From assembly GCF_053078305.1 (NCBI RefSeq), contig NZ_CP166879.1: a stretch of DNA of 64,000 bases. The stretch is one strand, 5' to 3'. The position numbers are program-made. Positions within the stretch are counted from its first letter, which is position 1. Each line of letters begins with the position of its first letter. Below are positions 42,001 through 45,000 of the stretch, one piece after another.

Positions 42001-45000
42001 TGGCGTTTATTGTTTCCTTCCTGCCGCCGGATAACATCCAGGGTGACTCTACCGATATGTATGTTGAATTACTGGTCGTTAGTTTCCTGGTGGTACTTGC
42101 CCTGCCCTTTATTCTCTATGCTGTTCATGATCGTAAAGGCAAAGCGAATACCGGCGTCACTCTGGAGCCAATCAACAGTCAGAACGCACCAAAAGGTCAC
42201 TTCTTCCTGCACCCGCGTGCACGTTCACCACACTATATTGTGATGAATGACAAGAAACACTAACCATGTCTGAATGGTTATAAGATAAGGGAGCGATAAT
42301 TCATCGCTCCCTTTTTCGTGCTTGCTGTCGTATTGACTTAACCGGGATAAGTACGAGAATGAGCGCACATCTGTTTACCGGAAACCAGCACATATGGATA
42401 TCTGCTCCCGAAACGAGAAATTAGCGATTAGAAGACCAGCGATACTGGTTGCACTGGCACTTTTACTGTGTAGTTGTAAAAGCACGCCTCCAGAGTCCAT
42501 GGTGACACCACCAGCAGGTTCAAATCCACCAGCCACGACGCAACAATCGTCACAACCGATGCGTGGCATCTGGCTGGCCACGGTGTCTCGCCTCGACTGG
42601 CCACCGGTTTCCTCGGTTAACATTAGTAACCCCACCAGCCGGGCCCGTGTACAACAACAGGCGATGATCGACAAACTGGATCATCTGCAACGTCTCGGTA
42701 TAAACACGGTCTTTTTCCAGGTCAAGCCGGACGGTACCGCCCTGTGGCCTTCAAAAATTTTGCCGTGGTCCGATCTTATGACCGGTAAGATTGGTGAAAA
42801 TCCGGGTTACGATCCGCTGCAATTTATGCTCGACGAAGCCCACAAGCGTGGGATGAAAGTACACGCCTGGTTTAACCCCTATCGCGTATCGGTTAATACG
42901 AAGCCCGGTACTATCAGGGAACTGAATAGCACCCTGTCTCAACAACCGGCGAGCGTCTATGTGCAACACCGCGACTGGATCAGAACGTCCGGCGATCGCT
43001 TTGTCCTCGACCCGGGCATCCCTGAGGTTCAGGACTGGATCACATCAATAGTCGCAGAAGTGGTTTCCCGCTATCCGGTAGATGGCGTGCAGTTTGACGA
43101 CTATTTCTATACTGAGTCACCGGGTTCACGGCTAAATGATAACGAAACGTACCGCAAATACGGAGGCGCATTTGCGTCAAAAGCAGACTGGCGGCGCAAC
43201 AATACTCAGCAGTTAATTGCAAAGGTATCGCACACCATTAAAAGCATTAAGCCGGGAGTCGAATTTGGTGTTAGCCCGGCAGGCGTGTGGCGTAACCGAT
43301 CACACGATCCGCTCGGTTCCGATACCCGAGGCGCGGCAGCCTATGACGAATCCTACGCTGACACCCGTCGATGGGTGGAACAAGGATTGCTGGATTACAT
43401 TGCTCCCCAAATTTACTGGCCGTTCTCACGGAGTGCCGCGCGTTATGACGTGTTGGCAAAATGGTGGGCGGATGTCGTTAAACCGACCAGGACCCGCCTG
43501 TATATCGGTATCGCCTTCTATAAAGTGGGTGAACCTTCAAAGATAGAGCCAGACTGGATGATTAACGGCGGCGTACCGGAACTGAAAAAGCAGCTCGATC
43601 TTAACGATGCGGTACCCGAAATTAGCGGCACCATCTTGTTCCGTGAGGACTATCTGAATAAACCGCAGACTCAACAAGCGGTCAGCTATCTGCAAAGTCG
43701 TTGGGGCAGTTAAACTCCCATTTTTACTTTGTAACAAGCCGGTGCTTTACCCACTGGCTTGTTACCCTCTTGAACTATCCCACTAGCAATCATGCTTACT
43801 AAAGTCAAATTAACCACGCAATTAACCACGCTTAGTTAAACAGCCATAATCCCCCTAATAAAAATGTATGAATATGAAAAACCATACGATATTCGCAGTC
43901 ACCGAAAAATAATTACGATGGGCTATACTCTTCTGAAGAACAGTAGCGTAGATTGAAACTGTCCTAAGTCGCTTATTTCTTTTCAGTATATCTTCATATT
44001 TCAGGAGAATATGGTGCAGTTAGTCGATCTCGCACGTTGCGTTTCGTTTTGATTCCGTCTGATTTCCCAGCCTTATAAGGGTGTGAATTATGGAGATGTA
44101 TTTTAAAAGAATGAAAGATGAGTGGACCGGACTTGTCGAACAGGCAGATCCGCCCATTCGAGCTAAAGCCGCGGAAATTGCCGTTGCGCATGCTCATTAT
44201 CTGAGTATTGAGTTTTATCGAATTGTCCGCATCGACCCGCATGCCGAAGAATTCTTGAGTAATGAACAAGTTGAGCGGCAGTTGAAAAGTGCGATGGAAC
44301 GCTGGATTATTAACGTGCTTTCTGCCCAGGTTGACGATGTCGAAAGGCTAATACAAATCCAGCATACCGTCGCGGAAGTGCATGCCCGCATAGGAATTCC
44401 GGTAGAAATTGTCGAGATGGGGTTTCGGGTGCTGAAAAAGATCCTCTATCCGGTAATCTTCTCTTCGGATTATTCTGCCGCAGAAAAACTTCAGGTCTAC
44501 CATTTCTCGATTAACAGTATTGATATCGCTATGGAAGTGATGACCCGCGCGTTTACCTTTAGTGACAGTAGTGCCTCAAAAGAAGATGAAAACTATCGTA
44601 TCTTCTCGTTACTGGAAAACGCCGAAGAAGAAAAAGAACGGCAAATAGCCTCAATACTTTCATGGGAAATAGATATCATCTATAAAATCCTGCTGGATTC
44701 TGATTTAGGCAGTAGTTTGCCTTTAAGCCAGGCTGATTTTGGCCTGTGGTTTAACCATAAAGGTCGACATTATTTCAGCGGCATTGCTGAAGTGGGCCAT
44801 ATCTCTCGTCTGATTCAGGATTTCGACGGTATTTTCAATCAAACCATGCGTAACACCAGGAATTTGAATAACAGAAGTCTGCGGGTGAAATTTTTATTAC
44901 AGATAAGAAATACCGTATCGCAAATTATTACCTTGCTGCGTGAATTGTTTGAAGAAGTATCGCGCCACGAAGTCGGTATGGATGTACTGACGAAATTACT

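Follow-up and report, generated by a model that had tools for sequence, protein, structure and literature searches.

A stable stem-loop without a U tract follows digH in Escherichia and may form the 3' end of the digH mRNA

Introduction

The closest described counterparts of the element analysed here are stem-loops located at Rho-dependent transcript 3' ends in Escherichia coli. These resemble intrinsic terminators with a reduced U content and without an upstream A tract. C is enriched over G downstream of them, where rut sites have been placed just beyond the stem, and the stems, which lie at precise steady-state 3' ends, protect the RNA against PNPase and RNase II (Dar & Sorek, 2018, Nucleic Acids Res. 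46:6797, PMC6061677). The hairpin that follows digH (formerly yddW) shares with this class a terminator-like size, a position soon after the stop codon, the lack of both a U-rich tail and an upstream A tract, and an excess of C over G downstream. The class itself was experimentally mapped with respect to 3' ends and exonuclease protection, whereas the digH hairpin is tentatively assigned to it from features of its sequence.

In the gal operon, termination by Rho is reportedly followed by 3' processing to a hairpin, as experiments are said to have shown. The arrangement that we propose for digH resembles it in that diffuse downstream termination by Rho would be followed by trimming to a stable stem; the gal case is experimental, whereas that of digH is read from the DNA only. 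REP and BIME elements are likewise extragenic palindromes that follow coding regions and could block 3'-to-5' decay, malE–malF being an example in which such a palindrome acts as a barrier to 3' exonucleases. They are multi-copy and have a common consensus, whereas the digH palindrome is present once per genome and is unrelated in sequence. Canonical terminators such as that of gadC (window positions 42287–42313, AAGGGAGCGATAATTCATCGCTCCCTT followed by TTTCGTG) also consist of a GC-containing hairpin just after the gene. Term-seq places a 3' end at the gadC terminator, whereas the digH hairpin has neither a U tract nor a listed end (Adams et al., 2021).

Genomic context

The analysis covered a stretch of 64,000 nucleotides (the window; RefSeq assembly GCF_053078305.1, contig NZ_CP166879.1), in which the queried segment 43600–44100 is 100% identical to E. 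coli strain ES5 and shares about 95% identity with K-12. Every gene near the hairpin has the same orientation (Table 1), and the stop codon of digH is the TAA at 43711–43713. In K-12 MG1655 the hairpin is found at 1567452–1567486 on the minus strand, and it carries no annotated feature. Further downstream, a sigma-S-like −10 element of dosC (CTATACT, 43923–43929) is invariant among the Escherichia sequences that were compared. The relevant items in the literature on the yddW, yddV and dosCP promoters are RpoS and RpoH SELEX peaks and the YddY small protein.

Table 1. Features of the digH–dosC region in window coordinates
Feature	Position	Strand	Basis or remark
gadC	40728–42263	+	ORF list, RefSeq annotation
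digH (formerly yddW) coding sequence, 439 amino acids	42394–43713	+	ORF list; RefSeq name digH in K-12 and ES5
U-rich spacer from stop codon to stem, ACTCCCATTTTTACTTT, 17 nt	43714–43730	+	Sequence
5' arm, GTAACAAGCCGGTG	43731–43744	+	Sequence, fold, repeat search
Loop, CTTTACC, 7 nt	43745–43751	+	Most variable part of the hairpin, within E. coli and between species
3' arm, CACTGGCTTGTTAC	43752–43765	+	T at 43755 forms the G·U pair in + strand RNA
Untranslated C-rich, G-poor tract; putative Rho-loading (rut) region	43766–43860	+	Base composition; function inferred
dosC	44090–45472	+	ORF list, RefSeq annotation
dosP	from 45473	+	ORF list, RefSeq annotation

Structure and stability of the hairpin

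The hairpin occupies positions 43731–43765 of the + strand and reads GTAACAAGCCGGTG-CTTTACC-CACTGGCTTGTTAC. A repeat search of the window describes its arms as 14 nt each, 93% complementary and 7 nt apart. In the RNA of the + strand they form 14 consecutive pairs, 13 of them Watson–Crick and one (pair 11) G·U, around a loop of 7 nt. The folding energy is −20.9 kcal/mol (z = −6.1), a value that none of 200 dinucleotide shuffles reached, and the same hairpin is present in the fold of a 101-nt context. RNA of the − strand folds at −18.4 kcal/mol and contains a C·A mismatch.

A preliminary description of this DNA had reported a stem of 13–14 bp after yddW, which the 14 pairs bear out, and had named RNA folding as a check, which likewise returned a stable + strand hairpin. 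Its placement of the stem 18 bp after the stop was close: 17 nt separate the stop codon, which ends at 43713, from the start of the stem.

The stem is longer than chance would give. Thirty Markov simulations of the 64-kb window gave a mean of 0.43 perfect stems of at least 10 bp per window and no stem of at least 13 bp.

Copy number and alleles within E. coli

Of 5,426 complete E. coli genomes, 5,411 contain the hairpin, each at a single locus. A second 'place' returned by the genome search most likely reflects a self-match of the palindrome on the opposite strand. In the 64-kb window, a search allowing up to three mismatches returned one match only, without further copies. The suggestion that the same palindrome might be found elsewhere in the genome was not borne out, a single locus being present in the E. 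coli genomes searched. A REP-like or mobile repeat was considered and rejected, as the palindrome is single-copy both in the window and in the 5,426 genomes.

The hairpin belongs to no Rfam family. At permissive E-values an Rfam scan gave only sub-threshold chance matches, the best overlapping one being rli61 (22.6 bits against a threshold of 50, E = 0.59). A full-text search of a literature library with the hairpin sequence found no paper that prints it.

The K-12 allele, represented by 2,641 records, has a C in place of the T at 43755 and is a perfect 14+14 palindrome; the allele of the window is represented by 1,483. Variation within E. coli falls mainly in the loop and in the uppermost pairs of the stem. 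Mismatches in the stem are A·G (strains EH01 and OkiPb), U·C (HS02 and 21AR0303) and A·C (NCTC9112 and GTEN97), and on refolding the GTEN97 stem contains a G·U pair next to an A·C mismatch. All of the E. coli variants examined, including the mismatch alleles, fold at −19 kcal/mol or stronger.

Absence of a U tract and hairpins after digH in other Enterobacterales

As had been noticed from the outset, there is no run of T beyond the stem on either strand: the + strand continues as CCCTCTTGAAC and the − strand as AAAGTAAAAATGG. A canonical terminator has about five or more U in the 8 nt directly after a GC-rich stem. The tail of the + strand (CCCUCUU as RNA) has three T among its first 8 nt and none among the first three, and a consensus terminator scan of 42300–44300 identified no sites. 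The sole T-rich stretch, ATTTTTACTTT, is located upstream of the stem on the + strand and for that reason cannot be used as a terminator tail for either strand. This upstream sequence contains no A tract. In every Escherichia lineage examined the tails are U-poor (CAACGAAAC, CCTGCAAAA and CTTCTTTGC), which suggests that the missing U tract is a stable state rather than the result of recent decay.

Strong hairpins after digH are also encountered outside Escherichia, where the synteny around the gene is lost. At 33 of 80 Enterobacterales loci the 70 nt after the digH stop codon contain a hairpin that folds at −18 kcal/mol or stronger, compared with three of 80 dinucleotide shuffles and 13 of 80 in a coding-region control. 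At about a dozen of the 80 loci, for example in Enterobacter, Buttiauxella and Pectobacterium, the hairpin is followed by a T run and resembles a canonical terminator. At other digH loci, as in Escherichia, no U tail follows the hairpin. Together, this frequency and the T-run cases point to a 3' hairpin as a general, recurrent and non-homologous feature of digH.

The T-run loci have the hairpin at the same position as in Escherichia and lend some credit to a non-canonical intrinsic terminator, in which the long GC-cored hairpin, perhaps aided by NusA or NusG, would release the polymerase at the weak CCCUCUU sequence without Rho. In strength the stem equals those of genuine terminators, and the nearby gadB hairpin (40592–40619), which has only a short AUUU tail, matches a 3' end in the K-12 Term-seq data. 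We nevertheless consider such a terminator quite unlikely in view of the scarcity of T in the tail, above all directly after the stem, the negative consensus scan, the U-poor tails of all Escherichia lineages and the lack of a 3' end at the hairpin in published maps (Adams et al., 2021).

Published transcript-end and Rho maps

The Term-seq 3'-end lists of Adams et al. (2021) are curated and thresholded and cover three conditions. They contain strong 3' ends after both gadB (1570594) and gadC (1568900), which coincide with the window hairpins at 40592–40619 and 42287–42313, respectively. The same curated lists contain no 3' end near the digH hairpin, and the bicyclomycin list of that study (its Supplementary file 2) has no Rho termination region in the interval 1566–1568 kb. 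Among the entries listed in the TRS 2023 and TERMITe 2025 supplements, none is located at the hairpin. The missing 3' end is weak evidence, since digH may be too weakly expressed in those conditions; low expression could explain its absence from both the 3'-end and the Rho lists.

Conservation in other Escherichia

The comparison took in five other Escherichia genome representatives from a species collection. E. whittamii is among them, and three are records whose label says no more than E. coli or Escherichia sp. All five have a hairpin of −14 to −24 kcal/mol that begins 15–17 nt after the digH stop codon. The core of the stem, GCCGGTG/CACCGGC, is nearly invariant, while the lower stem is rebuilt between representatives through a change in arm length, bulges and several G·U pairs. 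The sole clean double change is an A-U to G-C replacement at pair 3 in three representatives.

In an alignment of 12 sequences, standard pairs occupy 93.4% of the pair cells. The covariation is not significant in these 12 sequences with their few independent events, as the observed values were reached by 78–292 of 500 shuffles. When read in the + sense, the cells that are not Watson–Crick comprise 12 G·U and three A·C, or about 7–8 events versus three. This excess of G·U over A·C leans towards selection acting on the RNA of the digH sense strand, with few independent events behind it.

For identity across the intergenic region, E. coli was compared with four other Escherichia genome representatives. 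The spacer between the digH stop codon and the stem is 82% identical between species (12 of 17 columns invariant) and the hairpin itself 73%. The stretch of about 85 nt that directly follows it (83 columns) is rich in indels and only 36% identical. Beyond it, the block containing the dosC promoter and leader is again 87–91% identical.

These comparisons bear on whether the palindrome has a current function. A neutral relic, for instance a decayed terminator, would agree with covariation that does not rise above shuffles, with the roughly 95% identity that the flanking intergenic DNA also shows within E. coli, with stem mismatches in some common alleles (EH01, OkiPb, HS02, GTEN97 and NCTC9112) and with the absence of a mapped 3' end from the lists of Adams et al. 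(2021). We judge this unlikely, as the hairpin is 73% identical across species against 36% for the adjacent indel-filled columns, pairing persists in other representatives despite the changed arm lengths and bulges, every mismatch allele still folds strongly, and unrelated strong hairpins occupy the same place after digH in many genera. Such a relic would be kept by low divergence together with quasi-palindrome template-switch repair that copies one arm onto the other.

Association with digH rather than with dosCP

The genome of Escherichia sp. MOD1-EC7003 lacks the dosCP–ddp block and has kept digH and the hairpin. A REP element follows about 8 nt after its stem, and then a convergent osmC. 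In addition, about 1,074 complete E. coli genomes are without the 5' part of dosC, and nearly all of these retain the hairpin. The conservation pattern and this retention in the absence of dosCP suggest that the hairpin is an island joined to digH at its 3' end. It would therefore lie outside the architecture of the dosC promoter and go with digH.

The shared orientation of all genes and the lack of a release signal in the hairpin itself are compatible with an intercistronic stabiliser within a longer digH–dosCP (or gadBC–digH) read-through RNA. Endonucleolytic cleavage downstream would then be followed by 3' exonucleases that stop at the stem, so that the digH segment outlasts the rest. Protective structures of this kind are reportedly present in E. 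coli operons. We give this a low probability in either form, given that gadBC ends upstream of digH at a canonical terminator, where a strong 3' end has been mapped, that dosC has its own invariant sigma-S-like −10 element and a conserved promoter block, and that the hairpin is retained where dosCP is missing. An intercistronic stabiliser differs from the 3'-terminal stem-loop proposed below only in the origin of the primary 3' end.

It had also been suggested that the element could be a palindrome to which a protein binds, placed before the dosCP promoter. An element acting at the DNA level could serve dosCP as a palindromic operator bound by a dimeric regulator, or it could belong to a minor promoter, with CTTGTTA in the right arm as a sigma-32-like −35 element and CCCACTA 14 nt downstream. 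The perfect 14+14 palindrome of the K-12 allele would suit an operator. An in vitro genomic SELEX peak of RpoH holoenzyme is reported at 1565470 in the yddV–yddW spacer (Shimada, 2017, PMC5493296); it converts to about 1567447, a few nucleotides from the hairpin, via an inferred genome-version offset of 1,977 bp and at an array resolution of about 100 bp. The palindrome, however, precedes the likely dosC −10 element by about 160 nt and is separated from the promoter block by the hypervariable, indel-rich stretch. Its outer half-sites and arm lengths vary between species while pairing is kept, and bulges and G·U pairs in other Escherichia break the exact dyad symmetry of the DNA. It is also single-copy in the genome and persists without dosCP. 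A role at the DNA level, as operator or as minor promoter, is very unlikely on these grounds, and the earlier suggestion is not upheld.

Specific candidates of this kind were tried and rejected. The sigma-32 promoter reading of the right arm relies on about nine specified bases, which is at chance level, and the −35-like CTTGAA of the window is CTTAAA in K-12. As for a dosCP operator, conserved half-sites at a fixed spacing linked to the promoter were not found.

C-rich tract after the stem

The RNA downstream of the stem is rich in C and poor in G. An 80-nt window at 43780–43859 contains 24 C and 7 G, and just 0.13% of + strand windows are as skewed; windows within 43740–43839 are in the top 1% for C-over-G skew on this strand. 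The equivalent tract of K-12 has 20 C and 4 G, and those of other Escherichia genomes with dosC have 12–16 C and 6–8 G. Tracts with more C than G are common, and many others are present in the 64-kb window.

Discussion

The digH hairpin combines a stable stem with the absence of a U tail, the absence of an upstream A tract and a downstream excess of C over G, the combination that characterises the class described by Dar & Sorek (2018). All four of the class features that can be tested in sequence are present. The preliminary description had offered a Rho-dependent termination signal and an RNA stability element as separate possibilities; these are really one known mechanism. Both the four features and the positional conservation next to digH speak for this combined proposal, while the published 3'-end and bicyclomycin lists hold no entry to match it.

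Our preferred explanation, held with moderate confidence, is that the hairpin is a 3'-terminal stem-loop that shields the digH mRNA, with Rho terminating transcription further downstream. From the sequence we infer the following course of events. Transcription of digH would continue beyond the stop codon and the 14-bp stem would fold in the nascent RNA, where, without a U tract, it would probably be poor at releasing RNA polymerase by itself. Rho may then load onto the untranslated C-rich, G-poor RNA just past the stem and terminate transcription within the next 100–200 nt, either ahead of the sigma-S-type dosC promoter or in its vicinity. Two 3'-to-5' exonucleases, PNPase and RNase II, would trim the RNA back to the base of the stem and be blocked there. 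Such trimming would fix a precise 3' end at about 43766–43769 (about 1567450 in K-12) and protect the digH mRNA, the half-life of which may be affected as a result. As a side effect, dosCP would be insulated from read-through from digH.

A more elaborate possibility is that the hairpin and the C-rich tract together constitute a conditional Rho-dependent attenuator that sets the level of read-through from digH into dosCP. We regard this as very unlikely. If it were true, a septal peptidoglycan hydrolase would be coupled to an oxygen-sensing c-di-GMP module. PNPase reportedly associates with DosC/DosP, and c-di-GMP is said to activate it. In a variant of the attenuator the stem would be a preferred barrier to PNPase, which would give dosCP feedback on the stability of the digH mRNA.

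With the 3'-terminal stem-loop as the preferred reading, the digH hairpin is an ordinary case of a known kind that had not been described before. Confirmation would give E. coli a further annotated 3' end, marking where the digH transcript stops and where the dosCP unit has its upstream limit. This would be of use for transcription-unit annotation and for the design of constructs around digH and dosC, without changing any concept. With digH there would also be another gene whose terminal hairpin is followed by a U tract in some genera, whereas in Escherichia it lacks one and presumably depends on Rho.

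Hairpins in the neighbourhood of digH

The hairpins that follow gadB and gadC are positive controls from the same neighbourhood as the digH hairpin, as each coincides with a 3' end mapped by Term-seq (at K-12 positions 1570594 after gadB and 1568900 after gadC; Adams 2021). The gadC hairpin is a canonical terminator. Long hairpins that lack a U tract are not rare within the window, since three further such stems are present, each of them perfect. One of these, at 59011–59042, is found between the convergent genes yddM and fdnI, about 20 nt past the fdnI stop codon.

Features of the hairpin region and of the comparison loci
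Feature	Window position	Locus position	Strand	Basis or remark
gadB hairpin, 12 bp stem, short AUUU tail	40592–40619		+	Coincides with Term-seq 3' end
gadC hairpin, T run	42287–42313		+	Coincides with Term-seq 3' end
Stem of 11–12 bp, no T run after it	59011–59042
Stem of 11–12 bp, no T run after it	15922–15952
Stem of 11–12 bp, no T run after it	27025–27055
12-mer AATTAACCACGC, perfect tandem duplication	43808–43831		+	Repeat search and K-12 comparison
CTATACT, σS-type extended −10 (close match)	43923–43929		+	Sequence match
yddY, upstream ORF of dosC	44011–44052		+	Alignment A4, columns 322–365
Homology break (E. coli MS20673)	43758	L003 3159–3215		Sequence comparison
Region lacking the dosC–dosP–ddpXABCDF block (Escherichia sp. 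MOD1-EC7003)		L011 3985–4540		Sequence comparison
dosC deletion (strain C25)	∼44049–45308	L004 2940–3160		Sequence comparison

Rearrangements and deletions downstream of digH

In E. coli MS20673 the homology with the window stops within the right arm of the hairpin, of which 28 of the 35 nt are retained. An IS1 transposase gene starts about 55 nt past the end of the homology, with sra, maeA and adhP behind it, and this locus therefore lacks dosCP together with the genes through bdm. In Escherichia sp. MOD1-EC7003 the entire dosC–dosP–ddpXABCDF block is missing. Immediately past the digH hairpin lies a REP-like element, whose homologue in K-12 is situated after osmC; beyond it comes osmC itself, in convergent orientation. 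Anecdotally, two independent rearrangements thus end at or beside the palindrome, the second with its junction about 8 nt past the stem.

Within E. coli, the first 600 nt of dosC are absent from about 1,074 of the 5,426 complete genomes. The deletion in strain C25 starts inside yddY and ends near the 3' end of dosC, leaving a 165 nt dosC remnant ahead of an intact dosP. APEC O18 and other strains apparently share a deletion of this type, as judged from matches that stop at the same query position.

The dosC promoter region and yddY

The DNA that separates the hairpin from the dosC promoter block is rich in indels and hypervariable, with an interspecies identity of 36%. It contains the AATTAACCACGC duplication; K-12 has a single copy of this 12-mer, ending in CACAC. 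Genomic SELEX has placed an RpoS-holoenzyme peak within yddW (K-12 position 1566238) and an RpoH-holoenzyme peak in the yddV–yddW spacer (1565470), both in the numbering of an older genome version (Shimada 2017). Using a shift of +1,977 to the current K-12 version, which we inferred in this analysis, these peaks correspond roughly to window positions 43000 and 43770, respectively.

The CTATACT element is situated about 160 nt 5' of the dosC ATG, is identical in all six aligned Escherichia sequences and is probably the −10 element of the dosCP promoter. If so, yddY would fall within the leader. The YddY protein has been detected (VanOrsdel 2018). The Shine–Dalgarno sequence and the ATGGTGC start of yddY are invariant across Escherichia, while in four of the comparison loci (L012–L015) the ORF is reduced to just three codons, ATG GTG CNN TAA. 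Conservation of the start but not of the peptide suggests that it is translation of this upstream ORF, rather than its product, that matters.
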